A stretch of DNA of 64,000 nt from contig CAVROQ010000033.1 of NCBI GenBank assembly GCA_963722805.1, positions 198,619-262,618 of the forward strand. Reading direction: 5' to 3'. Below, one piece after another: positions 4,639 through 58,501 of the stretch (positions are counted from its first letter, which is position 1; each line of letters opens with the position of its first letter). The notes beneath the pieces were generated by a model. That model ran no database searches and was not told where the DNA came from. It was given only the letters and a program-made list of their open reading frames with translations. The stretch is from an uncultured Gammaproteobacteria bacterium (GTDB lineage Bacteria; Pseudomonadota; Gammaproteobacteria; Pseudomonadales; JAHEGP01). The position numbers were made by a program, and so were the translations under genes.

Positions 4639-4683
4639 CTGTCTAGTACTCCCACCGCTAGTGCGTGTAGTAGCGGCTGTATA

Positions 4684-6999: not shown

Positions 7000-7013
7000 T
7001 GCGCGTCCTCCCG

Positions 7014-7973: not shown

Positions 7974-8021
7974 TACGGCTTTCGTTGCGCTTTGCGGCGG
8001 CTATTGGCGCGACAAGTGGAT

Positions 8022-9581: not shown

Positions 9582-9615
9582 GATAGCGATTCCTTTTATC
9601 CCCTGGTCTGCGCGT

Positions 9616-13644: not shown

Positions 13645-13740
13645 CCCCGATCTGTGGCCGATAGTCGACCATTGTTACTGGTCTCGCTGCTGGTGTGCAC
13701 CGGCTTCTGACGTCGCTCATCGATGGCGACGGCAGAGCCT

Positions 13741-14934: not shown

Positions 14935-14937
14935 CCG

Positions 14938-15381
14938 TTAGCTCCCGTCGCTTGCCATTTGTTTAAACTTCCAGGTGGTGAACGCACTGTCACCCTCGTG
15001 ATACAGGGTGTCGATAAGCAGTTCTACCGTGGCGCCCACGCTTACGCAGTCGGGTTTGTCGACCATCTGCCCGATCAGCCGCAGGCCGCATTCGAGGTCA
15101 ACGACGCCCATTGCATAAGGCGTAAAAGGCTCATCGTACTTGTGTGGAGGTGGAGGCGGAAAGTCGGCTACCGCATAGCTCCAGAGCACGCCACGACCGC
15201 CAAAATCGCAGTCTTGCATATTCGGTTTGACGCAGTCCGGGTTATGACAGAAATCAGCGCGCGGAAAATAGGGCGTGTTGCAACCGGCGCACCTGGAACC
15301 ATGCAGCCTGGCGCCGTCGCTCTCTGAAAACAGCCCGTCGATGCAGGGTTGGCGCCCCTGTGGTGCAGTGGATTCCGACAT
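14938..15381 (-). CDS. DUF35 OB-fold/zinc-ribbon protein (BbsA/ChsH2-C-like thiolase partner)
   Basis: 147 aa. Zn-ribbon CAGCNTPYFPRADFCHNPDC followed by an OB-fold-like segment. Paired with the thiolase gene. Confidence 0.75.
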   Translation of the reverse strand: MSESTAPQGRQPCIDGLFSESDGARLHGSRCAGCNTPYFPRADFCHNPDCVKPNMQDCDFGGRGVLWSYAVADFPPPPPHKYDEPFTPYAMGVVDLECGLRLIGQMVDKPDCVSVGATVELLIDTLYHEGDSAFTTWKFKQMASDGS

Positions 15382-15395
15382 GAAAATGGCTCCTT

Positions 15396-16370
15396 TTACG
15401 CTGTCGCTTGTTTCACCAACTCGGGCAATATTTCGACGCAGTCACCGACAATCCCATAGCGGGCATAGCGATAGATGGCGGCGTCGGGATCCTTGTTGAT
15501 GGCAACGATAGTTTCGGCGGCGGAACACCCTGCCATGTGCTGGCTGGCACCAGAAATACCTGCGGCAATGTAGAGGCCGGGGCGGGTAATTTTGCCGGTC
15601 AGGCCTACCTGGCGTGACGAATCGATCCAGCCGTCGTCGACAATTGCTCTGGATGCGCCGTGCATGCCACCCAGGGCCATCGCCAGTTGCTCTACCAGCC
15701 GGTAATTCTCCGCCGCGCCAAGGCCGCGCCCGCCAGCGACAATAATGTCGGCGTCTTCCAGTCTTGGGCCATCGGCGCTGGCCGCAGAAGTCACCGTGAA
15801 ACGTTCTTCGGTCTGCTCCAGATCTACCACGACCGAACGCGCCTGCGGCGCAGGAGTTGCGGCAGCCATCGCTGCGCCAGCCATCGCTGCGCCAGCCGGC
15901 GCTGCGGAGACCAGCGAAATAACATTGACCGCTGCGCCGAGGCGGTAAACAGCGTGAGTGTCGCCACCGTATGCGCTGGCGGTAACCAGGAGGGCGTCGC
16001 CATCGCGCTTCAGGTCAAACACATTCATGCTAACGGGTATGTTAAGCCGTCCTGCCAGTCGCGGTGCGATCAGTCGGGTGCTTGGGCTCTGGTTGAACAG
16101 CACCGTGGCCGGCGAATACTGCTGGCAGTATTGTGCCAGTGCTGCCACCATTTTGTCGGAGCCAAAGTCGACAAGGTCCGGGTGTTCGATGGTGTCGAGG
16201 TTCGCAACGCCGCAGCGTGCCGCCATTTCCTGTGCTGCCGCGGACAAGGCACCAATCACCAACCAGCTCAGTTCGGCGCCGATCGACTGACTGTAAGCCA
16301 GTGCCAGGCTGAGTGACTCTTCGGTTCCGGCCTCGATAGTGTCACCCCAGGAGCAGAGTACAACGGTCAT
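15396..16370 (-). CDS. etfA: Electron transfer flavoprotein alpha subunit
   Basis: 324 aa. C-terminal FAD-binding signature VGLTGKITRPGLYIAAGISGASQHMAGC. No etfB gene is adjacent. Confidence 0.85.
   Translation of the reverse strand: MTVVLCSWGDTIEAGTEESLSLALAYSQSIGAELSWLVIGALSAAAQEMAARCGVANLDTIEHPDLVDFGSDKMVAALAQYCQQYSPATVLFNQSPSTRLIAPRLAGRLNIPVSMNVFDLKRDGDALLVTASAYGGDTHAVYRLGAAVNVISLVSAAPAGAAMAGAAMAAATPAPQARSVVVDLEQTEERFTVTSAASADGPRLEDADIIVAGGRGLGAAENYRLVEQLAMALGGMHGASRAIVDDGWIDSSRQVGLTGKITRPGLYIAAGISGASQHMAGCSAAETIVAINKDPDAAIYRYARYGIVGDCVEILPELVKQATA
15865..15906. repeat. In-frame 15-bp tandem duplication (about 2.8 copies) in the EtfA inter-domain linker
   Basis: GCCATCGCTGCGCCA repeated at 15865 and 15880, with a degenerate third copy. 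Encodes AGAAMAGAAMAAA. Confidence 0.7.
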
Positions 16371-16457
16371 AGTGTGACTTCCTTCAATCTGTTGCAGGCG
16401 GTAGAACTGCAGAGAAGTTCAACAACCTGTCAGGGTGCGTACCTGTGTTTTCAAAAG

Positions 16458-16529
16458 AGTCTACTGGCAATGGCTGGACGCCTCCATCCGTGCTGGCATC
16501 AAATGCGGCCTTTGCCATCTCAAATTTGG
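16458..16529 (-). promoter_or_regulatory. Conserved promoter module, copy C: 33-bp motif, 33-bp spacer, TAGACT. Drives the etfA operon
   Basis: Minus strand reads CCAAATTTGAGATGGCAAAGGCCGCATTTGATG-N33-TAGACT. TAGACT lies 93 nt upstream of the etfA ATG. Spacing is identical to the copies at 17797 and 48297. Confidence 0.65.
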
Positions 16530-16709
16530 ACAGTAATATACCCGGCCATTGCTCCATGGGGCGGCTCGTTGGATGATGGGGGCAGTGTTCAATTTGCCCC
16601 TGTTCGGGAGGCTACCCGGGTGGCGTTTGCAGCGTGTTTACAGCTGGCGTTACTATACGGCTGCTCACTTTTGATCACCCACAAAACCCTATATAAAGAG
16701 GCGTGAAAG

Positions 16710-17678
16710 ATGGCGGACCAGGATTATTTCGTGGCACTTACCGAGTGTCATTTTATGAACCCCCAGACGATGTCGGAGATTGACTATTATCCCAATGTGC
16801 AGCGTTGGTGGGGCAGTGTAGATGGTGTGATGCGAGCGTGGTCCGGGCGTGATTTGCAGGGCGAGTGGCCGCATCCCATTGCTTCCGAATTAATCAAATA
16901 TATGGACATTGCCGGGGTCGATGTCACGTTTTGCCTGCGTGAGTCGATGCTGGATGTCACTGGTGGTGTCGTATCCTTGTCTACTAACGGATTCATGATG
17001 CAGCAAATCGAGCCCTATCCTGGTCGCATGTATCTCGAGGCCAATTGCGGCCCGGTTATCAAACGCGGTATCGAAGAGGCCAATTGGGAGCTTGAATACC
17101 TGGTCAAGGAGCGTGGTGCCAAGCTCTGCAAAGTCTACGCCCCGGAAGATGACGGCCCGCTCAACGATCGGCGGATGTGGCCATTTTATGAAAAGGCCTG
17201 CGAGTTGGGTGTACCGCTTACTGTTCATACCGGCCACAGCTATGTGGTGCCGCAGCCGGGCTCGTACTGTGATGTGCGGCAATTGGATGACATTTTGCTG
17301 GATTTTCCGGAGCTGCAGATTATTGCCTACCATGCGGGATGGCCGGATACCGAGCATTTGATTGGCCTGTGCGGCAAACATCGCAATTTGTATATGAGTT
17401 TGTCGGGTGTCATTGGTTGGTACGAGCGGGCTCCGTACCGGGGGTATCACGCGATAGGAACGGCGTTGCAGTGGATGCCTTCAGAGAAGATAGTGTTGGG
17501 CCTGGACTTGCCTTTCGATGATACCAAGCGGGTGGTGGACTATATTCGCAACCTGGACATGCCGGAGGAGCTTCAGGAAAAGTGGGGTTACCAGCAGCTG
17601 AGCAATAGTGACAAGGCCAATATCCTGGGCTTGAATCTGGCGCGGCTTACCGGCATTGAGCCCACCAAACGGGTATAG
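16710..17678 (+). CDS. Amidohydrolase-2 family metal-dependent hydrolase/decarboxylase (TIM barrel)
   Basis: 322 aa. LTVHTGH and IIAYHAGWP metal-ligand-like blocks. C-terminal NILGLNLARL is typical of PF04909-type proteins. Confidence 0.7.
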   Translation: MADQDYFVALTECHFMNPQTMSEIDYYPNVQRWWGSVDGVMRAWSGRDLQGEWPHPIASELIKYMDIAGVDVTFCLRESMLDVTGGVVSLSTNGFMMQQIEPYPGRMYLEANCGPVIKRGIEEANWELEYLVKERGAKLCKVYAPEDDGPLNDRRMWPFYEKACELGVPLTVHTGHSYVVPQPGSYCDVRQLDDILLDFPELQIIAYHAGWPDTEHLIGLCGKHRNLYMSLSGVIGWYERAPYRGYHAIGTALQWMPSEKIVLGLDLPFDDTKRVVDYIRNLDMPEELQEKWGYQQLSNSDKANILGLNLARLTGIEPTKRV

Positions 17679-17796
17679 CAAAGCTGCAGTTGAGCGGGCA
17701 ATCCGGCAGGGTTTTGGCAATCGTCTTGCCGGCCGCTGACATAAAGCGCTACAGCGGCAACGCCAGCATGAGTGCGTCAGCTAAAAGCGGTGGCGG

Positions 17797-17868
17797 CCAA
17801 ATTTGAGACGCTATAGGCCGCATTTGATGTTTGTCGTGCTAGAGGCACAAAAAATTTGTCTTTAGACT
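17797..17868 (+). promoter_or_regulatory. Conserved promoter module, copy A: 33-bp motif, 33-bp spacer, TAGACT. Drives the small-ORF/acyl-CoA ligase operon
   Basis: CCAAATTTGAGACGCTATAGGCCGCATTTGATG-N33-TAGACT. TAGACT lies 114 nt upstream of ATG 17977. Confidence 0.65.
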
Positions 17869-17976
17869 GCGTTGTAAGCAGGGCATGGGGTGCGAACGGA
17901 ACTGACAGTTCCTGTCCGACGACAATAGTGATCAGGTCCCGTTACAGACGAGCGGGCAGGCATAAGGTGAAAGCGT

Positions 17977-18285
17977 ATGACACAGTTAAAGGCAGGCAGC
18001 CGTATGCGCAGCTCGGTTTGCGCGACCGAGGTGATGGTGATTGCCGCTCCCGCTGCTGACACAGAAGTGAGTTGTGGTGGCGCGGTGATGATTGCCATGA
18101 CGGAGCAGCCCGCCGGTGGTGAAGTTGACGCCGAGCATGCCGGCGGGACCTTGCTGGGCAAGCGCTATGTTAACGAGGCCGGCGACCTGGAGTTACTCTG
18201 TACCAAGCCCGGGGACGGTTCTTTGTCGGCTAACGGTGTGACTTTGTTGCACAAAGAAGCCAAGCCCCTGCCGTCGTCGGATTAG
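17977..18285 (+). CDS. Small hypothetical protein (102 aa) with an internal two-fold repeat
   Basis: First ORF after promoter copy A. Two related segments (VCATEVMVIAAPAADTEVSCGGAVM and GDLELLCTKPGDGSLSANGVTLL). No recognisable family. Confidence 0.4.
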   Translation: MTQLKAGSRMRSSVCATEVMVIAAPAADTEVSCGGAVMIAMTEQPAGGEVDAEHAGGTLLGKRYVNEAGDLELLCTKPGDGSLSANGVTLLHKEAKPLPSSD

Positions 18286-18356
18286 TCCGGATACTGCAGG
18301 CGGTTACGCGTTTGCTGGTGCAGTATTGGGGCTGTGCGGTCCACGGGGACTTGAGC

Positions 18357-19856
18357 ATGAATATAATGATGTTGCTGGAGATGGCGTCCCAGGGTTTTGG
18401 CGAGCGTATTGCTTTTACCCACGGTGACGATTCACTCACATACAAGGAGTTGTATCACGCAGCCGGTGCTGCCGCTGCCTATATTCGTGAGTCGGGCTGT
18501 AGTTATGTGGCGATGCTGGATGTCAGCAGTCTGGCGGCGCCGGTGGCTTTGTTTGGCAGCGCCTGGGCGGGGGTCGCCTATGTGCCGATCAACTATCGCC
18601 TCGCCGGGCATGAAATCAAGGCTTTGTTGGAGCGGGTGGAACCGGCGCTATTGATTACCGGGGCCGATCAACAGCATGAATTCAGTGGTCACGCCAACAT
18701 CCATCCATTGCAGCGCGATAAGTTTCTCGCTCTGGCTCGCAACGGTAATCCGCCCGGGCCGGACTGGTCAATGGACGCTGAGGATACCGGGGTGTTGCTA
18801 TTCACCAGTGGCACTACCGGTGCCCCCAAGGCTGCGCTGCTGCGCCAGAAGCATCTGGTATCTTATATTCTTGGCTCCGTAGAATTCATGTCGGCGGCAG
18901 AAGACGATGCGGCGTTAGTGTGTGTGCCGCCCTATCATGTGGCGGGCATTTCTGCGATGTCGAGTTCTGTATATTCCGGGCGAAGGGTCGTACAGCTGTC
19001 CGATTTTGAGCCCCGCGCCTGGCTCGACCTGGTGCGGCAAGAACGCATCAGCAATGCTTTTGTGGTGCCGACTATGTTGGCGCACATTATCGAAACGGTT
19101 GAGCGCGACGGCGATACGGCGCTACCCAGCCTGCGTTCGCTGGCTTACGGTGGCGGCAAGATGCCGCTATCGGTTATTGAGCATGCGATGCGCCTGTTCC
19201 CCAATGCTGAATTCACTAACGCTTATGGTTTAACCGAAACCAGCTCTACGGTTGCGGTGCTGTGCCCGCAGGATCATCGCCTTGCCGCAGCCAGTGATAA
19301 CCCCGCCATCAGGCGACGTTTGGTGTCGGTGGGCCAGGCCTTACCGGGGGTTGAGGTGCAAATCCGGGATGATGACGGCACACCCCTGGGAGCGGGCCAG
19401 CGCGGCGAAATCTTTGTGCGTGGTGAGCAGGTTTCGGGTGAATATGTGGGGACTGGCAGTCTGCTCGATGCCGCAGGCTGGTTTCCTACCCGGGATGCGG
19501 GTTCGATGGACGCAGACGGTTACTTGTTTCTGGAGGGCCGGGCTGACGATGTCATTGTTCGCGGCGGTGAGAATATGTCGCCGGGTGAAATCGAGGATGT
19601 TTTGCTGGAACATCCGGGGGTTGCCGATGTGGCTATCGTCGGGATTCCGGACGAGCAGTGGGGTGAGGCGGTGGCAGCCGCGGTGGTGCTCAAACCCGGG
19701 CAGTGCGCCGATGCTGCTGCTTTGCAGCAATGGATTAAAGATCGTATGCGCAGCTCCCGGGTACCGAATGTGTTGATGTTCTGGCCGGAGCTTCCCTATA
19801 ACGAAACGGGTAAGTTGTTGCGACGGGTGGTGAAGGCTGAGTTGGCGAAAGCCTGA
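18357..19856 (+). CDS. AMP-dependent acyl-CoA synthetase/ligase
   Basis: ORF 18312..19856 trimmed to ATG 18357. AMP-binding motif LLFTSGTTGAPKAALL. Later YGLTETS, GWFPTRD and GKLLRR motifs of adenylate-forming enzymes. Confidence 0.85.
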   Translation: MNIMMLLEMASQGFGERIAFTHGDDSLTYKELYHAAGAAAAYIRESGCSYVAMLDVSSLAAPVALFGSAWAGVAYVPINYRLAGHEIKALLERVEPALLITGADQQHEFSGHANIHPLQRDKFLALARNGNPPGPDWSMDAEDTGVLLFTSGTTGAPKAALLRQKHLVSYILGSVEFMSAAEDDAALVCVPPYHVAGISAMSSSVYSGRRVVQLSDFEPRAWLDLVRQERISNAFVVPTMLAHIIETVERDGDTALPSLRSLAYGGGKMPLSVIEHAMRLFPNAEFTNAYGLTETSSTVAVLCPQDHRLAAASDNPAIRRRLVSVGQALPGVEVQIRDDDGTPLGAGQRGEIFVRGEQVSGEYVGTGSLLDAAGWFPTRDAGSMDADGYLFLEGRADDVIVRGGENMSPGEIEDVLLEHPGVADVAIVGIPDEQWGEAVAAAVVLKPGQCADAAALQQWIKDRMRSSRVPNVLMFWPELPYNETGKLLRRVVKAELAKA

Positions 19857-22818: not shown

Positions 22819-23772
22819 ATGGATACTATCGATCAGCAAGTTCTTAGGCAGTTGCAGCATTGGCTGCAAGCGGGGCAGGCCTGCTGGCTGTGCACCATCG
22901 TTGGCACCTTGGGGTCGTCGCCGCGTCCGGTGGGCTCACTACTTGCCTGTAACGATGCCGGCCAATGGGTTGGATCCCTCTCGGGTGGTTGTGTTGAGGA
23001 TGATTTACTGGAGCGCCTCGCCCGCGGTGAGCTGGCCCGGGCTAAACCGGAGTTGGTCGAGTACGGTGTGACCGCCGAGGAGAACGAGCGCCTGGGCTTG
23101 CCCTGTGGCGGGCGGCTCGAGGTGCTGGTGGAAAGCATAGAGGCAGGACAGTTGCCGGCTTTTGACAGCATCATTGCATGTCTCGATCAACGGGTTTGCT
23201 GCCTGCGTGAGCTCGACCTGCAAAGTGGAGAAATACGGGTAAGCCCGACGGATACCTTCCAGCCCCTCGAATACGATTCAGAGTTTTTGCGCCAGGGTTT
23301 TGGCCCGCGCTTTCTGTTATTGCTGGTTGGTGCCGGCCAGTTGGCTCGCAGTTTGGCGCAGATGGCGATGATGCTCGATTATCGGGTGGTGGTTTGCGAT
23401 CCCCGACCCGCCATGATTGCCGATTGGAGCCTGCCCGGGGTGGAGTTGATCCAGGGGATGCCCGACGACGTGGTACGTGAGCGGGTGTTGGACAAGTTTT
23501 CGATAGTGATTACCCTGACCCACGATCCACGCATCGATGACATGGCCTTGATGGAAGCCCTCACTTCACCCGCCTGTTATATTGGCGCCCTGGGGTCGGT
23601 GCGCACCAGCGCCAAGCGACGCGAGCGCCTGCCGCAGTTGGGCTTGAGCCAGCAGCAGATTGATCGGCTGCATGCACCGGTAGGATTGAGTATCGGTAGC
23701 AAGACACCACCTGAAATTGCCATCGCTATTCTTGCAGAGTTGACCCGCATGCGGCGCCAGGGATTGGCGTGA
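22819..23772 (+). CDS. xdhC: XdhC/CoxI-family molybdoenzyme maturation factor
   Basis: 317 aa. N-terminal XdhC_CoxI-like block (TIVGTLGSSPRPVGSLL) and a Rossmann-like LLLVGAGQLARSLAQMA...VVVCDPRP. Confidence 0.8.
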   Translation: MDTIDQQVLRQLQHWLQAGQACWLCTIVGTLGSSPRPVGSLLACNDAGQWVGSLSGGCVEDDLLERLARGELARAKPELVEYGVTAEENERLGLPCGGRLEVLVESIEAGQLPAFDSIIACLDQRVCCLRELDLQSGEIRVSPTDTFQPLEYDSEFLRQGFGPRFLLLLVGAGQLARSLAQMAMMLDYRVVVCDPRPAMIADWSLPGVELIQGMPDDVVRERVLDKFSIVITLTHDPRIDDMALMEALTSPACYIGALGSVRTSAKRRERLPQLGLSQQQIDRLHAPVGLSIGSKTPPEIAIAILAELTRMRRQGLA

Positions 23773-24350
23773 AAGTTGGCGCATTATTGCTGGCAGCGGG
23801 CGCCTCGCGGCGCTTTGGCGCCGACAAGCGCTGTGTGCAGCTGAACTCTGGTGACACGCTGTTGGCGACCAGCTTGCAGCTCTACCTGGATGCTGTCGGC
23901 AGTTGCGTCGTGGTGATCGACCAAAGTGATGAGGCCTTGAAACCCGATTTAATAGCGCGGGGTGCGACCCTGGTCGAGGTGCCGGGTCGTAAACGCGGCT
24001 TGGGGATGGGTGATAGCCTGGCCTCTGGCATGGGCTATATTGCCGCTCAGGAGTACGATGCCTGCCTGGTTGCGCTAGCCGATATGCCCTGGGTCGCGCC
24101 GGCTACGCTGCTGGCGCTGGTCACTGCCCTTGCTGACGCGCCATTGGTGGTGCCGGTGTGGCAGGGTCGCCGGGGTCATCCGGTAGGTTTTCGAGCGTGT
24201 TATTTTCCTGAGTTGTGTCAACTCAGTGGCGATAGTGGGGCTCGCGCGGTGCTCCAACGCCATCGTTCATCGTTGTTGCAGCTGCCGGTAGACGACCCGG
24301 CAGTGCTGCGTGACGTGGATACCGTCGTCGACCTGCTGCGCCAGCCATAA
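23769..24350 (+). CDS. MobA-like NTP transferase, probable molybdenum cofactor cytidylyl/guanylyltransferase (MocA/MobA type)
   Basis: 193 aa. GTG start overlaps the xdhC stop by 4 nt. N-terminal GALLLAAGASRRFGADKR nucleotide-binding signature. Confidence 0.7.
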   Translation: MKVGALLLAAGASRRFGADKRCVQLNSGDTLLATSLQLYLDAVGSCVVVIDQSDEALKPDLIARGATLVEVPGRKRGLGMGDSLASGMGYIAAQEYDACLVALADMPWVAPATLLALVTALADAPLVVPVWQGRRGHPVGFRACYFPELCQLSGDSGARAVLQRHRSSLLQLPVDDPAVLRDVDTVVDLLRQP

Positions 24351-28620: not shown

Positions 28621-31059
28621 ATGGTGCTGAGTAAGGGCGCGCTTGCCGGCATCAGGGTGCTGGAGGTCGTCGATGAAACTGCGTCCTGGTGTGGCAAGTT
28701 ATTTGCTGACATGGGTGCTGAGGTCATCCGGATCGAGCCGCCCGGCGGTGTCGCCGAGCGCAAGCGTGCGCCTTTCCTCGAAGGCATTGAGGGCGCTGAT
28801 CGCAGTCTGGCGTTTCTCAATAACAATACCAATAAGAAAAGCCTGAGCCTTGAGCTGGCGTCCGCCGCTGGAGCACAAACCTTTCGCCAGCTCGCCCGTA
28901 CTAGCGAGCTGGTGATCGAGAGTCTGCCTGTGGGTCAGCTCGCTGCGTGGCAGCTGGATTACCATCGTCTGAGAATCGACAACCCGGCGCTGGTCATGAC
29001 CTCAATCACCGGCTTTGGCCAAACCGGGCCCCACTGCCACTTTCGCAGTGCCGATATCGTGGCGGCGGCCATGGGTGGGGCCATGGCAGTTACCGGCGCG
29101 GCGCAAGATCCTCCGGTAGTGCTGGCCGGCTCCCAGTCGTATATCGCCAGCTCGACCCTGGCCGCGGTGAGCAGCATGATCGCCTTGCACCACAGTGCCG
29201 TCAGCGGCTGTGGCCAGCATGTGGATATCTCGATGCAAGAGGCCATGCTGATGGTAGGCAGCATCTGCGGGGTGGGCAAATGGCTGGAGGACGGGATGGT
29301 CCCGGCACGGTTTGGCACTGGCTTGTTTGCCTCGGTGCCCTCCGGCGCCTATGCCTGCAGTGATGGCAGCATTTACCTGATGATCAATCGACCGCGGCAC
29401 TGGCAGGCGCTGGCGCGTTGGGTAAACGAGATGACCGGCAACCGCGAAATTCTCGATCCGATGTTCGAAGGTCCATCTTCAAAGCGCCAGCCCTACCGGG
29501 AAATGCTCGACCTGTTTATCGGCGAGTTGAGCGCTGCTTATACGGTGGCTGACTTTTATCGTGAGGGTCAGCGCCGCCACCTTGCCGTTGCCCCGGTCAA
29601 TACCGGGCACAGTATTGTTGGCGATGGACACTTGCAACAACGCCAGTTCTTTGTCGAGCTGCAACATGGTGGGCATAGCCTGCGCTATCCCGGGCCGCCT
29701 TATCGCATGTCGGCGAGCCCCTGGCGCATCGCCGCTGGTGCACCGACTATCGACGAGCACAAGCCCGCCCTGGAGCAGTTGTTGCAGCGCGTGCGTGTGC
29801 CCCGCAGCAAAGCTTCGCAAGGGCGGCGACCAGCGCCGCGGGAGCGGGCTCTTGCCGGGCTGCGGGTGGTGGAGTTTACGACCGGTATGGCGGGGCCCTG
29901 GATTGGCCGGATTATGGCTTGCTGTGGCGCCGAGGTGATTAAGGTTGAGTCCCGCGACTACCCGGATGTTACCCGCCTCTATGTGCCGCCTCGCAACCCG
30001 GAACTGGGGGTGCAGTCGCAGTTGTCGCCGTGGCTGACCGACTGGAATGCCGGCAAGCGATTCGTAGGTTTGGATTTGAACCAGCCCGCAGGGCTTGAAC
30101 TGGCAAAGCAGTTGGTCGCCGCCAGCGATGTGGTGATCGACAACAATGCCAATGGCGTGCTGGACAAACTCGGACTGGGATTTGCCGAGCTACAACGCGA
30201 AAACCCCGCCCTTATCCTGCTCAGTAGTACTGGCTATGGCAGGCACGGTCCAGACTCCAATTATATCTCCTGGGGGCCGAATATTGAGGCCTTGTCGGGG
30301 CTCTCGCATTGGTCTGGCTTTGACCATCGACACTGCACCATGACCCAGTTTGCCTATCCCGACCCACTCAGCGCGCTGTATGGATTATTCGCGATCCTGT
30401 GCGCACTGCAACAGCGGAATCAAACCGGGTCTGGCCAGTGCATTGAGCTGTCGCAGCTCGAGGTGATGCTGGCCAGCCTGGGAGAACCGCTGATGAACGT
30501 TATGGCGCATGGCCGCGAGCCTGAAAAGTTGGGCAATAGCTCACTAAATTATGCGCCCCACGGTTGCTATCCCTGCGCCGGTATTGACCGTTGGTGCGTG
30601 ATTGTTGCAGCAGACCAGCAGCAATGGCGCGCCGTGTGCGAGGTATTGCAGCGCAGCGAGTGGCTGACCGATAGCCGCTTTGTCGAGCTGGCCTCAAGGT
30701 TGCGCTATCGCGATACCCTGGACGAGCTCATCGCCAGTGCCACGCATAGCTGGTGCGACTACGATTTGATGCAGGCCTTGCAGCGGCGCGGGGTGGCAGC
30801 CGGCGTGGTCCAGAATGCGGCAGATCAATACCAGCGCGATCCCCAGCTGGCTGCGCGCCACTACTTCGAAACGCTTGCCCATGCGCGCAAAGGTGAGGTG
30901 GTGGCTCCGGGTATTGCCCTGGGTCTGACGGTCACTGAGGTAAAATCGGGAGAAGCCGGGCGGGGGCCCGGGGCCGACAACAAAGCGGTTTTTTGTGGGC
31001 TTCTAGGAATAAGTCCTGCGCGCTATCGGCAATTGCGGGCAGCCGGCGTTATCCACTAA
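28621..31059 (+). CDS. Fusion of two family III (CaiB/BaiF) CoA-transferase domains, DddD-like architecture
   Basis: 812 aa. Domain 1 starts LAGIRVLEVVDETASWCGKLFADMGAEVIRIEPPGG. Domain 2 starts LAGLRVVEFTTGMAGPWIGRIMACCGAEVIKVESRD. Each is a full-length CaiB-like unit. Confidence 0.85.
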   Translation: MVLSKGALAGIRVLEVVDETASWCGKLFADMGAEVIRIEPPGGVAERKRAPFLEGIEGADRSLAFLNNNTNKKSLSLELASAAGAQTFRQLARTSELVIESLPVGQLAAWQLDYHRLRIDNPALVMTSITGFGQTGPHCHFRSADIVAAAMGGAMAVTGAAQDPPVVLAGSQSYIASSTLAAVSSMIALHHSAVSGCGQHVDISMQEAMLMVGSICGVGKWLEDGMVPARFGTGLFASVPSGAYACSDGSIYLMINRPRHWQALARWVNEMTGNREILDPMFEGPSSKRQPYREMLDLFIGELSAAYTVADFYREGQRRHLAVAPVNTGHSIVGDGHLQQRQFFVELQHGGHSLRYPGPPYRMSASPWRIAAGAPTIDEHKPALEQLLQRVRVPRSKASQGRRPAPRERALAGLRVVEFTTGMAGPWIGRIMACCGAEVIKVESRDYPDVTRLYVPPRNPELGVQSQLSPWLTDWNAGKRFVGLDLNQPAGLELAKQLVAASDVVIDNNANGVLDKLGLGFAELQRENPALILLSSTGYGRHGPDSNYISWGPNIEALSGLSHWSGFDHRHCTMTQFAYPDPLSALYGLFAILCALQQRNQTGSGQCIELSQLEVMLASLGEPLMNVMAHGREPEKLGNSSLNYAPHGCYPCAGIDRWCVIVAADQQQWRAVCEVLQRSEWLTDSRFVELASRLRYRDTLDELIASATHSWCDYDLMQALQRRGVAAGVVQNAADQYQRDPQLAARHYFETLAHARKGEVVAPGIALGLTVTEVKSGEAGRGPGADNKAVFCGLLGISPARYRQLRAAGVIH

Positions 31060-37382: not shown

Positions 37383-37480
37383 ATGGACGGTGATAGTGCC
37401 GCGCCTCAAGGGATGATATTAAGCGATGTCGATGCAGCATTGTCGGCACAATGATGCAAAGCCTTATGCAAGGAGATCCT

Positions 37481-38692
37481 ATGGCCAATGGTGCCCTGGC
37501 AGGAATCAAGGTGGTGGACTTTGGCCAGATGGTGTCGGCGCCCTATTGCGCCAAACTGTTCAGTGATTTTGGTGCCGATGTGATCAAGGTTGAAGCTCCG
37601 GGTGGTGATGCCGCCCGCCGGATGGGGCCGTTTCCCGGCGACATACCCGCAGCGGAAAAAAGTGGTCTCTTTTTCATCAACAATACCAACAAGCGCGGTA
37701 TTACCTGCGATGTTGCAACGGCTGCCGGGCGCGAGCTGTTCCTGCGCTTGCTGGAGTGGGCCGACGTACTGATTGAGAACAACTTGCCCCAGCAGATGCA
37801 AGCCTGGAAACTCGATTATCCAAGCCTGCAGCGCGTCAACCAGAGGCTGGTAGTTATCTCGATTACCCCGTTTGGCCAGACTGGCCCCTACAGTGGCTGG
37901 AACGCCTACGACCTCAATGCCTATCACCTTTCAGGTGCCAGTAACCGCTACTGTGGTCGTCCGGGAGAAATGCCGCTGGAGCACGGTACCTTCGCCGCCG
38001 ACTATTTCGGTGCCGTAACCGCGGCGAGCTGGGGCCTTGGCGCGTACTATGGCCGCGAAGCTGTGGGCAGCGGGCAGTGTGTAGATGTGTCCTGTGCAGA
38101 AGCTATCGCCGCTACCTTTGTTGGCGGCCAGACTATCGGTGGTTTTGCCCAGGACGGCGTTTTCGACAAGCGCACCGGGGTTGGGCTGCCCCAGGGCGCG
38201 CCCGCGACCATTGTGCCTTGTCGCGACGGTCATGTATGGATGCTGGCGTTGGAGCCGGGGCAGTGGAACGGTCTGCGGGAGGTCATGGGAAACCCTGAAT
38301 GGGCCGAGCTGGAATTGTTCCAGGATATGCGGGCGCGGGCCCAGAACGCGGATTTAATCTACCCGTTTATCGAAGAGTGGGCGCTGCAACACGACAAGAT
38401 GGAGATCATGGAAAAATGCCAGGCGGCCGGCTGCCCGATAACCGCGGTGTTTACCATTGCTGAAGCTGCCGAGCATCCCCATTTAGCCGCGCGGGATTAC
38501 TTTGTCGATATCGAGCATCCGCAACTCGGTCGGGTGAAGAATCTTGGTGTCCCGTTCAAACTGCCGGCATCGCCCGGTGGGCCGTGCCGACCGGCCCCAC
38601 TGCTGGGGCAGCACAATGTCGAGGTCTATGGTGCTATTCACGGTTTGTCTCCGGAGCAGCTGGACGAGTATCGGGCTCAAGGCGCGATCTAA
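37481..38692 (+). CDS. Family III CoA-transferase
   Basis: ORF trimmed to ATG 37481 (AAGGAG upstream). LAGIKVVDFGQMVSAPYCAKLFSDFGADVIKVEAPGGD. Conserved Asp block GTFAADYFG...VGSGQC. Confidence 0.8.
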   Translation: MANGALAGIKVVDFGQMVSAPYCAKLFSDFGADVIKVEAPGGDAARRMGPFPGDIPAAEKSGLFFINNTNKRGITCDVATAAGRELFLRLLEWADVLIENNLPQQMQAWKLDYPSLQRVNQRLVVISITPFGQTGPYSGWNAYDLNAYHLSGASNRYCGRPGEMPLEHGTFAADYFGAVTAASWGLGAYYGREAVGSGQCVDVSCAEAIAATFVGGQTIGGFAQDGVFDKRTGVGLPQGAPATIVPCRDGHVWMLALEPGQWNGLREVMGNPEWAELELFQDMRARAQNADLIYPFIEEWALQHDKMEIMEKCQAAGCPITAVFTIAEAAEHPHLAARDYFVDIEHPQLGRVKNLGVPFKLPASPGGPCRPAPLLGQHNVEVYGAIHGLSPEQLDEYRAQGAI

Positions 38693-38714
38693 AAAAATAT
38701 CGAATTCGAGGTCC

Positions 38715-39956
38715 ATGAGTCAGGAGAATCTGCCGATGCCACAGACATTGCCGCTACAGGGAATCCGGGTTGTCAATTTTGGCTGGGTCTGGGCGGGCCC
38801 GGTCACAGGGCAAACACTGGCCTTTATGGGAGCCGAGGTTTTCAAGGTTGAGTCCCATGCCCGGGTAGATATGACCCGCAACCTGCCGCCCTTTGCCGGC
38901 GGCGAGCACGGCCCCAATCGCAGTCTTTCCAACCATGCCTGCTGGGCGGGCAACGGCTCGGTCTCGCTCAACCTGAAGAAGCCCGAGGCGTTGGAGCTGG
39001 TACTGCAGCTCATCGCCCGGTCCGATGTGGTGATCGAGAATTTTGGGCCCGGGGTGATGGGAAAAATGGGTCTCGGCTACGAGGTGCTGCGCGGGGTAAA
39101 AGACGACATCATAATGTTCTCGATGCCAGCGACCGGTTTGTATGGGCCGCTGAAAGAAGTGCGTACCTACGGTTTAAGCCTCACCTCAATGACCGGTTTA
39201 GACAGCCTTGTGGGATATAAGAACGGTGGCCCGATCCCGGTTGAAAACGCCTTCTCAGACCCTTTTGCCGGAATTTTCGGCTCCTTTGCGATCATCGCTG
39301 CTCTCAATCATCGGCGTAATACCGGCGTGGGCCAGCACATCGATTTCTCCCAGCAGGAAGCGATTATGCAAATGGTCGGGCCCGCCTATATGGATTACGT
39401 TTTCAACCAGCGCTGCGGTGGTCCCAAGGGCAATGAGCATCCGCTGGCAATGGCGGCGCCCCACGGTGTGTTTCCCTGTGCCGGAGACGACCGCTGGATT
39501 AGTATTGCGGTACCCGACGAGGCGCAATGGCAGCAGTTAACGCAGGCGATGGGAGATCCACAGTGGGCTGGGGAAGAGGCGTTCGCCAGCCTTGCGCAGC
39601 GGCTGGAAAACATTGATCTACTGCACCGCCGGATTGCCGCCTGGACGGCCGGTTTTGACGATCGGGAACTGGCCGATCGACTGCAGGCCCATGGCGTGGC
39701 GGCCGCGCCGGTACTGGATGTCTCCGACCTGCTCAACGACCCCCACTATCGTGCAAGAGGCACCTTCATCGAGGTGCAGCACCCACTGGGTTTTGGCGAA
39801 ACGATTTACGGCGCCTATGTAAAAAACAGTGGCTACCAGCCAGCGGTTGCGCCCGGCCCCGTGATTGGTCAGGACAACGACTACGTATTCAAGAATCTGC
39901 TCGGGCTTTCCGCGGCGCGCTACCAGCAGTTACAAGACGAGCAGGTTATCTACTAG
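38715..39956 (+). CDS. Family III CoA-transferase
   Basis: ORF trimmed to ATG 38715, 22 bp after the previous CoA-transferase gene. LQGIRVVNFGWVWAGPVTGQTLAFMGAEVFKVESHAR. Asp block NAFSDPFAG...TGVGQH. Confidence 0.8.
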   Translation: MSQENLPMPQTLPLQGIRVVNFGWVWAGPVTGQTLAFMGAEVFKVESHARVDMTRNLPPFAGGEHGPNRSLSNHACWAGNGSVSLNLKKPEALELVLQLIARSDVVIENFGPGVMGKMGLGYEVLRGVKDDIIMFSMPATGLYGPLKEVRTYGLSLTSMTGLDSLVGYKNGGPIPVENAFSDPFAGIFGSFAIIAALNHRRNTGVGQHIDFSQQEAIMQMVGPAYMDYVFNQRCGGPKGNEHPLAMAAPHGVFPCAGDDRWISIAVPDEAQWQQLTQAMGDPQWAGEEAFASLAQRLENIDLLHRRIAAWTAGFDDRELADRLQAHGVAAAPVLDVSDLLNDPHYRARGTFIEVQHPLGFGETIYGAYVKNSGYQPAVAPGPVIGQDNDYVFKNLLGLSAARYQQLQDEQVIY

Positions 39957-54282: not shown

Positions 54283-55545
54283 ATGACTGAAACGACTGCA
54301 AGCGGGCCATTGGCCGGGCTGCGAGTGCTGGACCTGTCAACCATGCTGGCTGGACCGTATGGCGCAACCTTGCTGGGAGACCTTGGCGCCGATGTGATTC
54401 GCATCGAATCGCACTACGGCGATGAGAGTCGTCATCTGGGGCCCAGGCGTGGCACTGAGCGGGGCCCTTATTTGAGCCTCAATCGCAGCAAGCGCGCCAT
54501 GGTGCTTGACCTGCAGCAGCCGGGCGGACGGGAAGCCTTCGCCAGGATTGCGAAAACCGCCGACGTGCTGATTACCAATATCCGTGAGCCGGCGCTGAGC
54601 AAGCTGGGTTTGGATTACGAAAAAGTACTGGCCATAAAGCCCGATATCATCTGGATCAGGGTCACTGCATTCGGACCCGATGGTCCCTATGCCGGTCGGC
54701 CGGGGATCGACTTTCTTGCCCAGGGCTATACCGGCGTGCTGGCATTAAACGGCGAGCCGGATGGGGAGCCTGTGCGCACCGGTTTTCCCGCGGTGGATGT
54801 AATGACCTCATTGTTGGTGAGCAACGGAGCGTTGGCGGCATTGCGGGAGCGCGACGCCAGCGGCAAAGGGCAGCGTATTGAAATTTCCCTGCTTGATGCC
54901 CTGATGCACGCCCAGGCCAGTTCGATCGGTACTTACCTTGCGACCGGAGAGGCGCCGGCTAGAACCGGCAATCGCAGTTTGTATTTTGCACCCTCGGGAG
55001 TCTACCCAACCCGCGATAACCAGTACGTGGTGATTACCACGCCCGCGGAAAAATTTTTCGTTAAGCTGTGCCAGGCACTGGAAACCGATTGGTATCAGGA
55101 TACTCGCTTCCATTCCATTACCGCCCGGCTGGACAACCAGGATGAGCTCGACAGACTGTTGGGCGCGCGCACTGCCCACTTTAGCCGGGTGGAGCTGGTG
55201 GATCGCTTGATCGCGGCGGATGTGCTGACGGCGCCCATTAATAAGGTCGAAGACGTGGTGCGGGACCCGCAGATTCTGCACAACCGGATGATTACCCAGG
55301 TACAGCATCCCACCCTGGGTGAAGTCGGGGTTACCGGGGTGCCCATCCGGTTTTATGGTACTCCCTGTGAAGTGCGAAAACATCCGCCGTTGCTGGGTGA
55401 GCACACCCGGGAATTACTGCTTGAAGCCGGCTACACCGAAGCGGAGATCACTGAACTGATAGCATCGGGCCTGGCTGCCGATCATGCCGAGATCGAGCGT
55501 CAGCGCGCCGCACGCCGGGCGCGTAAAGCGCCCCGGAGCCCTTAA
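54283..55545 (+). CDS. Family III CoA-transferase
   Basis: 420 aa. LAGLRVLDLSTMLAGPYGATLLGDLGADVIRIESHYGDE. Asp block GFPAVDVMTS...SGKGQR. Confidence 0.85.
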   Translation: MTETTASGPLAGLRVLDLSTMLAGPYGATLLGDLGADVIRIESHYGDESRHLGPRRGTERGPYLSLNRSKRAMVLDLQQPGGREAFARIAKTADVLITNIREPALSKLGLDYEKVLAIKPDIIWIRVTAFGPDGPYAGRPGIDFLAQGYTGVLALNGEPDGEPVRTGFPAVDVMTSLLVSNGALAALRERDASGKGQRIEISLLDALMHAQASSIGTYLATGEAPARTGNRSLYFAPSGVYPTRDNQYVVITTPAEKFFVKLCQALETDWYQDTRFHSITARLDNQDELDRLLGARTAHFSRVELVDRLIAADVLTAPINKVEDVVRDPQILHNRMITQVQHPTLGEVGVTGVPIRFYGTPCEVRKHPPLLGEHTRELLLEAGYTEAEITELIASGLAADHAEIERQRAARRARKAPRSP

Positions 55546-55550
55546 GTCGG

Positions 55551-57068
55551 ATGGGTGCAGCAAATGTCTTTCGTCCCCTCGCGGGCTGGCAGTTATCAAT
55601 GCCGGCCCCGGAGTCGGTTGCCGATGCATATGCAAACCAATTATTGCGTGACCTGGGTGCCGGACTACCCGATCCCGTCATTGGCAATACCGTTGACGCG
55701 GCATTGGCCTGGGCCGACTCGGGCTTAATGTTCCTCTGTGGTGAGCTGAACCAGCCCCCACGACAGGGGCCCGGTGCGATTCCCTCCTGTGCCCGCGGGG
55801 TGATCAGTGCCATTCGAATGTTGGCGCCGCAAACCTTGTCCTCGGATATCGATGGTGCACTTTTACTGAGCGAACGAGCGGCCATGCTGGGCTTGCATGC
55901 CAGGGGCTCGATGTCGCCGAATCAAAGCTGCCGCGTGTTGCCCAGCCTGGATGGCTGGCTGGCGCTGAACCTGGCGCGTCGAGAAGATTGGCTCTCGTTG
56001 GCGGCATGGTTACAAGCTGATAAGCCGATAGATAATTGGGATAGCGTCCGCCAGGCCGTGGCGCAGCGATACACCAATGAACTGGTCGAGCGTGGCCGAT
56101 TATTGGGTTTGCCCCTCGCGGCGGCCAAGGTCACCACCAAAACTGCAAAGCCCTGGTTCAGGCTGCAGCAGCGCGGATGGCAGCGACCGCCACCTGCCGC
56201 AACAACCGGGCCGCTGGTAATCGATTTGTCATCACTGTGGGCTGGCCCACTGTGCAGCCACTTACTGCAGCAGGCAGGTGCGCGGGTGATCAAGGTTGAG
56301 AGTTTGCAACGACCCGACGGGGCCCGGCCCAGCGGGGTGCCGCCCGACGGGGCCCGGCCCGGCGGGGCCCGGCCCGGCGGGGTGCCGCCCAGCGGGGTGC
56401 CGCCCAGCAGGATGCACCCCGACGAGTCGCAAGCAGATCTTACCGGTTATAGCGATTTCTATCATTTGCTCAATGCCGGAAAATCCTCTGTGGCCCTGGA
56501 TTTCTCCCGTCCCGAGGGAGTGCGTCAATTGCAGGCGCTGCTGCGCCATGCAGATATCGTTATCGAGGGGTCGCGCCCGCGGGCGCTGCAGCAACTGGGT
56601 ATCGACGCCGGGGCCATCGTGCAGTCGAAACCCGGCCTGGTCTGGCTGGGAATCAGTGGCTACGGGCGCAGCCAGCCTGAAGCCAATTGGGTGGCCTTTG
56701 GTGACGATGCGGCGATGGCGGCGGGTGTCGCCAATACCGGGGCCAGCTCGCCGCTGTTTGTGGGTGATGCCCTGGCTGACCCGCTCTGTGGTGTGCATGC
56801 TGCGCTACTGGCGTTGGCCTGTTGGCGCGCGGGTGAAGGCGCTCTGCTGGACATATCACTGCACGACGTGGCGGCACATTGCCTGGCCTATGCCCCGAGC
56901 ATTGTGCAAGGAGATGTTGTTGCCGGCCCTGGACAGCAATGGCAGTTTGCCATTGCCGGACACAGCACCCAAATAAGAAAACCACAGGCGCGCCGCCCCT
57001 TGCAACTGGCTGCCAGGCTGGGCGCAGATACTCGCACTGTGCTGCGGGAGTTTGCGATTCCATGTTAA
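55551..57068 (+). CDS. Atypical family III CoA-transferase-like protein with rearranged domain order and a pentapeptide-repeat insertion
   Basis: 505 aa. The N-terminal ~200 aa align by eye to the distal large-domain plus small-domain part of a CaiB unit (SGLMFLCGELNQPP..., LPSLDGWLALNLARREDWLSLAAWL). The C-terminal ~280 aa start with the normal head (LVIDLSSLWAGPLCSHLLQQAGARVIKVES) and keep the Asp block (FVGDALADP...AGEG), but lack a small domain. Confidence 0.65.
   Translation: MGAANVFRPLAGWQLSMPAPESVADAYANQLLRDLGAGLPDPVIGNTVDAALAWADSGLMFLCGELNQPPRQGPGAIPSCARGVISAIRMLAPQTLSSDIDGALLLSERAAMLGLHARGSMSPNQSCRVLPSLDGWLALNLARREDWLSLAAWLQADKPIDNWDSVRQAVAQRYTNELVERGRLLGLPLAAAKVTTKTAKPWFRLQQRGWQRPPPAATTGPLVIDLSSLWAGPLCSHLLQQAGARVIKVESLQRPDGARPSGVPPDGARPGGARPGGVPPSGVPPSRMHPDESQADLTGYSDFYHLLNAGKSSVALDFSRPEGVRQLQALLRHADIVIEGSRPRALQQLGIDAGAIVQSKPGLVWLGISGYGRSQPEANWVAFGDDAAMAAGVANTGASSPLFVGDALADPLCGVHAALLALACWRAGEGALLDISLHDVAAHCLAYAPSIVQGDVVAGPGQQWQFAIAGHSTQIRKPQARRPLQLAARLGADTRTVLREFAIPC
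56316..56420. repeat. In-frame 15-bp tandem repeat, 7 units, inside the CoA-transferase-like gene
   Basis: GACGGGGCCCGGCCC / AGCGGGGTGCCGCCC / GACGGGGCCCGGCCC / GGCGGGGCCCGGCCC / GGCGGGGTGCCGCCC / AGCGGGGTGCCGCCC / AGCAGGATGCACCCC. Encodes DGARP-SGVPP-DGARP-GGARP-GGVPP-SGVPP-SRMHP. Confidence 0.9.
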
Positions 57069-58501
57069 TAAAGTCAGCGGAGTTGGCAGGGGAGCTGGTC
57101 GATCTGCGAGTCGCGCAAGGTCTGATTGCCGAGCTGGGAAAAAACCTGGTACCACGGCCGCAGGAGCGGATCATCGATGCCGCTGGCGGCGCAGTTTTAC
57201 CGGGCCTGCACGATCACCATATACATTTGTTTGCACTTGCTGCCGCCCGTAGCTCAGTGATGTGCGGTCCACCTGAAATAAATAACCGGGCGGAGTTGGC
57301 TGAGGCTTTGCTAAAGCAGCCGGGTAGCGGTTGGCTGCGGGGTGTGGGCTACCACGACTCGGTGGCCGGCTCGCTTGATCGCTGGCAGCTGGATAAATTG
57401 TTGCCGAACCGGCCGTTACGTATTCAGCATCGCAGCGGCAAGATGTGGATTTTGAACAGCCTGGCAATGGCGCATTTGGGGTTAGATATCGAGAGCGAGC
57501 TTCCTGGTATTGAACGCGACGCCGCAGGTCGGGCGAGCGGTCGCTTGTTTCGTATGGATGACTGGCTTGCTTCGAAGCTGGTGCGCCAGCCGCCACCCGG
57601 GCTTGGTGTGCTGTCCCGTGAGCTGGCGAGCTACGGCTTGACCGGCCTTACCGACACCAGCGCAAGTAATTCAAGCGCTGCGATGGCAGCGCTACAGCAG
57701 GCCCTGGAGCGGGGAGAGTTGCTGCAGCGTTTGCTGGTAATGGGTACCCTCGAACTACCCGCAGGTTCACACCCCTTGCTGCAGCGCGGTGCAGTAAAAA
57801 TCTTACTGGATGATCATCACCTGCCCGACTACGACCAACTGCTTGCGACCGTGTCACAGGCGCATCGCCAGCAGCGCGCAGTCGCCATCCATTGCATCAC
57901 CCCCACTGAGCTGGTGTTCGCTGCCACTGCCCTGCTGGAAGCGGGAGCGGTTGCTGGTGATCGGATTGAGCACGCCTCGATAGCCCCGGATGAGACACTG
58001 CCATTGCTGTATAGGGCCGGCGCAACCGTGGTGACCCAGCCGGGATTCCTGTGGCAGCGTGGTGAGCAGTACCTGCGCGATGTCGCTGTTGCTGAACAGC
58101 CCTTGTTGTACCGCGGCCAGGCATTTCTCAATGCGGGTATTCCGCTGGCGGGTAGCAGCGATGCGCCCTATGGTGATGCCGACCCATGGCTTGCCATCAG
58201 GGCGGCGGTGCAGCGGCAGACTGCTGGCGGTGTTGAAATTGGCGCGGCGGAAAAACTGTCGCCGGAGCGGGCCCTGGCATTGTTTACCACCCCGGCCACT
58301 GCGCCCGGAAGTACCCCCCGGGCGATTGAGGTGGGAGCCATTGCCGACCTCTGTCTACTGGATCGTCCCTGGCAAAAAGCCAGGCAACGTCTTTGTAGTG
58401 CCGACGTATTTGCCACAGTGCGCAGCGGTGAGTTGATATACCAGCGTGAGCCCTCATGCCGCGGATGCAATATCCTGGCTAGCAAAGGGCAGATAGTCTG
58501 A
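57062..58501 (+). CDS. Amidohydrolase-3 family metal-dependent hydrolase
   Basis: ORF trimmed to ATG 57062, overlapping the upstream stop by 7 nt. VLPGLHDHHIHLF metal-binding HxH motif. About 479 aa. Confidence 0.7.
   Translation: MLIKSAELAGELVDLRVAQGLIAELGKNLVPRPQERIIDAAGGAVLPGLHDHHIHLFALAAARSSVMCGPPEINNRAELAEALLKQPGSGWLRGVGYHDSVAGSLDRWQLDKLLPNRPLRIQHRSGKMWILNSLAMAHLGLDIESELPGIERDAAGRASGRLFRMDDWLASKLVRQPPPGLGVLSRELASYGLTGLTDTSASNSSAAMAALQQALERGELLQRLLVMGTLELPAGSHPLLQRGAVKILLDDHHLPDYDQLLATVSQAHRQQRAVAIHCITPTELVFAATALLEAGAVAGDRIEHASIAPDETLPLLYRAGATVVTQPGFLWQRGEQYLRDVAVAEQPLLYRGQAFLNAGIPLAGSSDAPYGDADPWLAIRAAVQRQTAGGVEIGAAEKLSPERALALFTTPATAPGSTPRAIEVGAIADLCLLDRPWQKARQRLCSADVFATVRSGELIYQREPSCRGCNILASKGQIV

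Follow-up and report, generated by a model that had tools for sequence, protein, structure and literature searches.

A two-half family III CoA-transferase-like protein with an N-terminal small domain, probably derived from an interlocked dimer

Results

Gene layout at the CTL locus

I analyzed a stretch of 64,000 nucleotides (nt) of DNA from an uncultured Gammaproteobacteria bacterium (positions 198,619 to 262,618, forward strand, of contig CAVROQ010000033.1 in assembly GCA_963722805.1; hereafter the window). An open reading frame (ORF) at 55551-57068 on the plus strand encodes a two-half protein of 505 amino acids (aa) that resembles family III coenzyme A (CoA)-transferases and is called CTL here. 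Family III CoA-transferases form a classic interlocked dimer, in which one ring passes through another. The features of the CTL gene and its two neighbors are listed below in window positions, with the tools that detected them, including AlphaFold2 (AF2) and Tandem Repeats Finder (TRF).

54283..55545, plus strand: canonical 420-aa family III CoA-transferase, upstream of CTL with a 5-nt gap (Pfam)
55551..57068, plus strand: CTL gene, 505 aa, ATG to TAA, intact ORF
55566..55706, plus strand: probable remnant of a first Rossmann head (beta1-alpha1-beta2), residues 6-52 (HHalign, AF2)
55695..56138, plus strand: second copy of the Asp-flanking helices, then linker and small domain, residues 49-196 (HHalign, Pfam, Foldseek)
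55785..55787, plus strand: Ser79 codon, the N-half counterpart of the catalytic Asp (HHalign alignment)
56211..56894, plus strand: complete CoA-binding Rossmann head and Asp block, residues 221-448 (Pfam, HHalign, PDB profile matches)
56313..56408, plus strand: 15-bp tandem repeat, 5.5 copies, Pro/Gly-rich insertion (TRF)
56778..56780, plus strand: Asp410 codon, equivalent of Frc D169 (HMMER, HHalign)
56895..57065, plus strand: C-terminal tail of the large domain, residues 449-505 (weak HHalign match)
57062..57068, plus strand: ATGTTAA overlap of the CTL stop codon and the amidohydrolase start codon (sequence)
57062..58501, plus strand: Amidohydro_3 (YtcJ-like) metal-dependent hydrolase (Pfam PF07969)

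Domain order of CTL

The canonical enzymes used as references (Frc/YfdW, CaiB, YfdE, and SUGCT; PDB 1p5h, 1pt5, 1xa3, 4hl6, and 9br6) follow the order large(N)-linker-small-linker-large(C). It was found that CTL departs from this order, as a homolog of the small domain (residues ~107-196) lies on the N-terminal side of the head. CTL belongs to the Pfam family CoA_transf_3 (PF02515) with a score of 140.6 bits against a cut-off of 23.3, and the match covers only residues 221-448 and profile positions 4-206 of 366. HHalign aligned the C-terminal half (C-half) with residues 11-214 of the canonical paralog encoded at 49686 (probability 99.9%), and the C-half profile matched Frc, YfdW, YfdE, and SUGCT in the PDB at E-values of 1e-24 to 1e-29. 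Between residue 448 and the tail, neither Pfam nor HHalign detected a small domain. The tail itself (LGADTRTVLRE) aligns weakly to residues 366-389 of the 49686 paralog in HHalign. A preliminary description of this DNA had read the C-half as a normal head, an intact Asp block, and a tail with no small domain between them, and this reading holds.

None of the named NCBIfam equivalogs (succinate-glutarate CoA-transferase, formyl-CoA transferase, YfdE, mesaconate CoA-transferase, and CaiB) reached its cut-off with CTL. The best score was 75.8 bits against a cut-off of 750, and all matches were partial (residues ~290-446); the scores against the models of mesaconyl-CoA C1-C4 transferase (Mct) and alpha-methylacyl-CoA racemase were far under the cut-offs. 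Databases label the family only as "CoA transferase" or "hypothetical" and leave half of the protein unannotated. The upstream 54283 protein spans Pfam profile positions 1-366 (394 bits), and a canonical transferase likewise precedes the CTL homolog at the L005 and P0036 loci.

The 15-bp repeat sits directly behind a conserved RPDGAR motif and duplicates this motif in frame into a Pro/Gly-rich loop, which AF2 predicts to be disordered (residues 263-289, predicted local distance difference test (pLDDT) <50). The insertion is lineage-specific; its length and repeat copy number vary among the four closest relatives (P0001-P0004), and it is missing from all more distant homologs.

Homology of the N-terminal half

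It had been proposed that residues ~40-200 match the canonical region that starts shortly ahead of the Asp block and extends to the end of the small domain. I compared a profile of 110 N-terminal halves (N-halves) with a profile of 20 canonical sequences, built from paralogs in the homolog loci, using HHalign. N-half residues 49-196 aligned with residues 143-325 of the 49686 paralog (probability 91%, E = 9.3e-7), in the proposed register that pairs SGLMFLCGELNQPP with TGIMARLGEPGQPP. The other motif pair, LPSLDGWLALNLA with YPAADKWVYICEP, was recovered by the same alignment. When 26 N-halves were scanned alone, 18 of them matched Pfam CoA_transf_3 at a sub-threshold level (best E = 1.7e-4), on profile positions 127-177 and 207-278, and no other Pfam family recurred among the 26. 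A Foldseek search of the PDB with the N-half-only AF2 model returned family III CoA-transferases for all of the top 50 matches (best E = 3.3e-7). Since HHalign, Foldseek, and Pfam agree in one collinear register, it is confirmed that the N-half is homologous to family III CoA-transferases, beyond chance.

The signal depends on profile depth. With three window paralogs only, HHalign gave a probability of 6-13%, and significance was obtained only with the 20-sequence canonical profile. Pairwise BLASTP of the N-half against the window paralogs was not significant (E = 0.13-0.14), and the register of the SGLM block was nonetheless right. The N-half of CTL itself gave no Pfam hit when scanned alone. 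In HMMER, the N-half profile matched PDB sequences marginally (E = 0.21 and 1.5), both of them family III members in collinear alignment.

The first residues probably retain a part of a head. HHalign aligned residues 6-52 with residues 2-47 of the 49686 paralog (E = 2.9e-4, probability 41%), and HMMER aligned residues 3-54 with residues 4-55 of formyl-CoA transferase at only 2.1 bits. The AF2 models have a helix at 23-34 with flanking strands, and this strand-helix-strand unit fits beta1-alpha1-beta2. Residues 6-52 are probably the remnant of a first head from which the canonical region ~48-142 was lost.

Catalytic Asp and conserved residues

The catalytic Asp of Frc (D169 in PDB chain numbering) is the Asp of a G-D-x-x-x-G block at the start of a long helix. 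Asp165 of Mct lies at the start of alpha7, consistent with this placement (PMC9196870). D410 of CTL aligns with Frc D169 in both HMMER and HHalign and is Asp in 110 of 110 family sequences, and AF2 places it at the N-terminus of a long helix (409-426). The Asp of an F-D-M-T-V-Q block was also considered as the catalytic residue and was rejected on the basis of the Frc numbering and the Mct paper (PMC9196870). In CTL, the position of that Asp is occupied by the invariant G384. The N-half column aligned with the catalytic Asp (S79 in CTL) contains Ser in 64, Thr in 32, Ala in 13, and Cys in one of the 110 sequences and never Asp, in agreement with the preliminary description, which had noted the Asp as replaced in this part. 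The alignment of 110 sequences leaves a single Asp site per chain.

It was revealed that 42 invariant columns are spread over both halves. They include G58, G64, E108, R143, and D146 in the N-half, the last three in the small domain, and W230, K248, E250, R342, R344, D406, D410, and H416 in the C-half. This conservation points to functional constraint on both halves. Residue 404 (56760-56762) is Cys in 106 of the 110 sequences (motif P-x-F-C-G-D-A) and Val in CTL and its three closest relatives.

Distribution of the family

Is this architecture common? The best 120 listed matches of CTL are mostly 440-500 aa in length, with query coverage of 80-100% and identity of 42-97%. Searches with the N-half profile detected 1,485 clusters (50% identity) at E <= 1e-3 and 1,212 clusters at E <= 1e-10; among the 150 matches listed, proteins of ~440-600 aa carry the N-half at their N-terminus or close to it. 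CTL relatives were detected in at least 587 species-level genomes, and the carriers include Spongiibacteraceae, Halieaceae, Steroidobacteraceae, Sterolibacterium, Aromatoleum/Azoarcus, Nevskiales, and Myxococcota. More than 100 full-length homologs, with identities of 45-97% and coverage above 90%, have the same domain order. A misassembly that joined two paralogs had been considered possible for this gene; because hundreds of genomes share this architecture, CTL is not a misassembly.

Short hits (150-320 aa) were examined as candidates for stand-alone N-halves and were rejected, as their sequences continue into the C-half motif before they end or go out of frame. One short N-half hit lies on a 2-kb contig. 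The short hits are fragments or frameshifts.

Literature searches found no description of a fused, monomeric, or permuted family III enzyme, and the PDB searches of this analysis found no solved structure of the CTL family. CTL thus represents a widespread and conserved architectural variant of family III CoA-transferases that is new to the searchable literature.

Predicted fold

AF2 modeled the full-length CTL monomer as a compact protein (pLDDT 91, predicted template modeling score (pTM) 0.92), and the N-half alone with a pLDDT of 83 and a pTM of 0.52. The small-domain loop at residues 111-130, which aligns with the region holding the glycine loop of Frc, has a pLDDT of 57-67 in the N-half alone and 96 in the full model. 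This rise suggests that the loop packs on the C-half. Mean-field direct coupling analysis of contacts between the halves (202 sequences, effective number 156) gave a signal dominated by gap and indel artefacts.

In canonical enzymes, an active site is composed of one subunit's large domain together with the other's small domain, and helices alpha5-alpha8 from both subunits make up the center of the dimer (PMC9196870). Because canonical sites are combined in this way, the N-half small domain of CTL probably covers the C-half active site, as the small domain of a partner subunit would. Each chain would then have one active site and would form neither a ring nor an interlock, a "single-chain half-dimer". 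It had been anticipated that such a chain should thread differently from a canonical ring protomer, and this is plausible. CTL may be catalytically active, either transferring CoA in an Asp-dependent manner or carrying out a similar reaction on CoA thioesters; this suggestion is tentative.

The amidohydrolase partner

The next gene downstream encodes an amidohydrolase. The 57062 protein scores 140.8 bits against PF07969 (cut-off 29.7), spans profile positions 1-472, and has the N-terminal HxH metal motif (HDHHIH). No NCBIfam equivalog was reached at its cut-off, and the nearest solved structures are named "uncharacterized metal-dependent hydrolase". The 7-nt overlap of the two genes, already noticed in the preliminary description, is real (ATGTTAA at 57062..57068). 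An identical overlap was found in L001, L003, L005, L087, L088, and the P0036 locus, and the amidohydrolase alignment begins at offset -3 in many loci. Among 80 loci with room for it, 65 (81%) have an Amidohydro_3 homolog immediately downstream on the same strand, in most cases with this overlap. In L004, the CTL-amidohydrolase pair stands alone amid unrelated genes. The C-terminal Cys505 (57063-57065) is kept in 100 of the 110 homologs, and its TGT codon gives the TG of the amidohydrolase ATG. Its conservation may reflect the gene overlap rather than protein function.

CTL may act in a stoichiometric partnership with this translationally coupled, YtcJ-like amidohydrolase. For example, the hydrolase could open or cleave a substrate to a carboxylate, which CTL could turn into a CoA ester. 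Both suggestions are made with low confidence.

Gene neighborhood and possible pathway

Frequent neighbors of CTL are an enoyl-CoA hydratase-family (crotonase) gene (31-35 loci) and an AMP-forming CoA ligase gene (30 loci). The wider clusters contain KstD-like flavoproteins, an SCPx-thiolase/DUF35 pair, acyl-CoA dehydrogenases, and many family III transferases. In L003, genes for Amidohydro_2, AMP-ligase, electron transfer flavoprotein (ETF), and Fe-S/CCG proteins directly adjoin the CTL-amidohydrolase pair. The window homologs of the AMP-ligase and one hydratase lie ~35 kb from CTL, beside Amidohydro_2, ETF, and Fe-S/CCG oxidoreductase genes, and a MenB/BadI-like crotonase is encoded at 50919.

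The oxygen-independent 2,3-seco pathway of steroid degradation includes a ring A hydrolase, SRAH, that was identified recently and is an Amidohydro_2 protein; the pathway's steps without an assigned enzyme comprise a CoA ligase/transferase, a hydrolase that releases acetate, an aldolase, and the opening of ring B (PMC11780191). Sterolibacterium, Steroidobacteraceae, Aromatoleum, Azoarcus, and Seongchinamella are common to the CTL carriers and the 2,3-seco steroid degraders (PMC11780191). Literature searches for a pair of CoA-transferase and amidohydrolase found nothing directly relevant except this paper (PMC11780191). The gene context suggests, with low confidence, that CTL takes part in breaking down steroid or alicyclic acyl-CoA compounds by an oxygen-independent route.

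Other features of the window

Nine CoA_transf_3 genes lie within ~29 kb (28621-57068), with starts at 28621, 31152, 33789, 37451, 38544, 48480, 49686, 54283, and 55551. Genes for acyl-CoA dehydrogenases, enoyl-CoA hydratases, a thiolase-like/DUF35 pair, and flavoproteins are interspersed among them. At the position of the 48480/49686 pair, short CoA_transf_3 calls (241-287 aa) stand beside full-length ones in other loci (L001 1368-2126, L003 1431-2156, and L088 2540-3403); their starts may have been called wrongly, or these may be real, truncated subunits. The Amidohydro_2 gene of the window (16710-17678, plus strand) lies within 11653-19856, beside genes for an AMP-ligase, ETF-alpha, a thiolase, and an Fe-S/CCG oxidoreductase. 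Genes for molybdenum-cofactor maturation (XdhC and MobA-like) are at 22819-24350 (plus strand), and the window contains no molybdoenzyme. L087 has a xanthine-oxidase-family Mo large subunit and CoxG at 1-2742, ~8 kb upstream of the CTL homolog. On the minus strand, 2218-9776 encodes an MtrC/MtrF-like decahaem cytochrome, an MtrB/PioB-like porin, and a multihaem NapC/NirT-type cytochrome with an EB_dh domain, an outer-membrane electron conduit adjoining the catabolic island.

Discussion

Origin of the two halves

I favor the reading, with a probability of roughly 0.62, that CTL derives, as a single chain, from the interlocked family III dimer, most likely through fusion of two protomers and reciprocal deletions. 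The C-half (221-505) is a full CoA-binding large domain with D410 and its own tail, and its small domain is excised. The N-half (1-215) has lost nearly all of its CoA-binding head, has Ser, Thr, or Ala instead of the catalytic Asp, and retains the core helices and a well-conserved small domain. The preliminary description had left the choice between a circular permutation and what remains of a fusion of two domains after the loss of its first head and second small domain. Because profile positions ~127-206, which form the helices around the Asp, occur twice, once per half, and because a probable head remnant precedes the N-half copy, the fusion with reciprocal loss is preferred, and the clean circular permutation is set aside. 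A permutant of one protomer would have each element once, in rotated order, and CTL does not; nor does CTL hold two complete units, as the N-half is without canonical ~48-142 and the tail, and the C-half is without the small domain.

An intact tandem fusion is encoded in the same window at 28621-31059 (plus strand). This 812-aa protein has two complete CoA_transf_3 units, each of which matches a full ~400-aa paralog, and its halves most resemble two separate, adjacent genes (37451-38692 and 38544-39956). By these similarities, it looks like a fused heterodimer. Thus, the postulated type of ancestor is present in the window, and a tandem double unit is the likely ancestral state of CTL.

Alternative explanations

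How well do other explanations fare? One might regard the N-terminal 215 residues as an unrelated domain whose motifs resemble CoA-transferases by chance. The insignificant BLASTP scores, the lack of a Pfam hit for CTL's own N-half, and the marginal PDB profile match at E = 0.21 speak for it, but HHalign (E = 9e-7), Foldseek (E = 3e-7), and the 18 of 26 N-halves on CoA_transf_3 have already refuted it, and it retains only a very small probability. An assembly artefact or a decaying pseudogene joining two paralogs is suggested by the nine CoA_transf_3 paralogs of the window and the 15-bp tandem repeat inside the gene. It has practically no chance against ~1,200 clusters, at least 587 species genomes, 42 invariant columns, and an intact ORF, and it too is already refuted. 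A true circular permutant, in which the small domain of one protomer moved to the N-terminus yet still fills its original place in that protomer, and a second chain is needed to complete each active site of a non-interlocked dimer, deserves more attention. Both halves together span the canonical profile once, except for positions 127-206, and permutations commonly form via duplication intermediates that leave such overlaps. However, the doubled block is strongly conserved and not decaying, the probable head remnant precedes it, and AF2 packs the monomer at pTM 0.92 with the small-domain loop ordered only when the C-half is present. In addition, the small domain of a canonical protomer serves the other site and not its own (PMC9196870). 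I therefore consider the permutant distinctly unlikely.

The function is a separate matter. CTL might be a non-catalytic, acyl-CoA-binding subunit that presents a CoA-thioester to the amidohydrolase, which would do the chemistry, such as C-C or C-N hydrolysis. The tight translational coupling and the 81% co-occurrence with Amidohydro_3 would fit such a role, the CoA ligase in many operons already supplies activation, and the 2,3-seco pathway has unassigned hydrolase steps on CoA esters (PMC11780191). On the other hand, D410, D406, and H416 are invariant in 110 of 110 sequences, which is unusual for a pure binding module; a binding role seems unlikely. A bolder and still less probable idea is that a de-interlocked CTL and the YtcJ-type amidohydrolase form an obligate complex that catalyzes an unassigned, oxygen-independent step of steroid breakdown. 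As candidate steps, the complex could hydrolyze DSA-4-en-CoA to SDA-CoA with release of acetate, or it could open ring B hydrolytically, with CoA re-activation of that product afterwards.

Several points weigh against the reading of CTL as a single-chain, partnered CoA-transferase. The placement of the small domain over the D410 pocket is inferred rather than observed, and CTL may still oligomerise. The match of the head remnant has a probability of only 41%, and BLAST gives an alternative register for residues 10-70. W230 stands where Frc has Q17, and D385, D386, and D406 are family-specific; the chemistry may not be CoA transfer. As an AMP-forming ligase is present in many loci, a plain CoA-activating transferase would be partly redundant. 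The adjacent amidohydrolase is lacking in 15 of the 80 loci, and every functional assignment of CTL derives from gene context alone.

Comparison with known systems

Frc/YfdW, CaiB, YfdE, and SUGCT share with the C-half of CTL the Rossmann large domain, the CoA-binding head motifs, and the position of the catalytic Asp, and with the N-half the small-domain fold and the helices around the Asp. They place large-small-large in one ~400-aa chain and form an interlocked homodimer with two active sites, whereas CTL has its small domain at the N-terminus, in a degenerate second unit, and one Asp site per chain. In benzylsuccinate CoA-transferase BbsEF (PDB 9fn0), and in the window pairs 48480/49686 and 37451/38544, two unlike family III units work together, and chains of BbsEF rank with the best structural matches of both CTL halves. 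These systems have two complete, separate subunits of ~400 aa, in contrast to the one chain of two incomplete units in CTL. The 812-aa tandem protein resembles CTL in having two family III units per polypeptide and differs in that both units are complete, while in CTL most of the first head and the whole second small domain are gone. Rv1866 of M. tuberculosis presumably has a tandem double family III layout like that of the 812-aa protein. Mct and alpha-methylacyl-CoA racemase show that the family III fold and its Asp also support isomerase or racemase chemistry on CoA esters; unlike CTL, they have the canonical domain order and form interlocked dimers.

The 2,3-seco gene clusters (PMC11780191) resemble the CTL clusters in several components, namely Amidohydro_2 (in the window and L003), a xanthine-oxidase-family Mo enzyme (in L087), a KstD-like flavoprotein, enoyl-CoA hydratases, and a thiolase-like/DUF35 pair. 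SRAH is an Amidohydro_2 protein of ~40 kDa, whereas the partner of CTL is an Amidohydro_3 protein; the Amidohydro_2 of the window is likened to SRAH by family only.

Significance

The interlocked topology of family III CoA-transferases raises the structural questions of how it evolves, how it folds, and how it can be escaped. If the inferred geometry is true, the CTL family would be a natural escape from the interlock, with one site per chain and no threading. The window appears to hold three stages together, namely separate pairs, an intact 812-aa fusion, and the reduced fusion that is CTL. The CTL gene neighborhoods and carriers are similar to those of the 2,3-seco pathway. Because of its fixed amidohydrolase partner, CTL is also a concrete candidate for the missing enzymes of anaerobic steroid breakdown.

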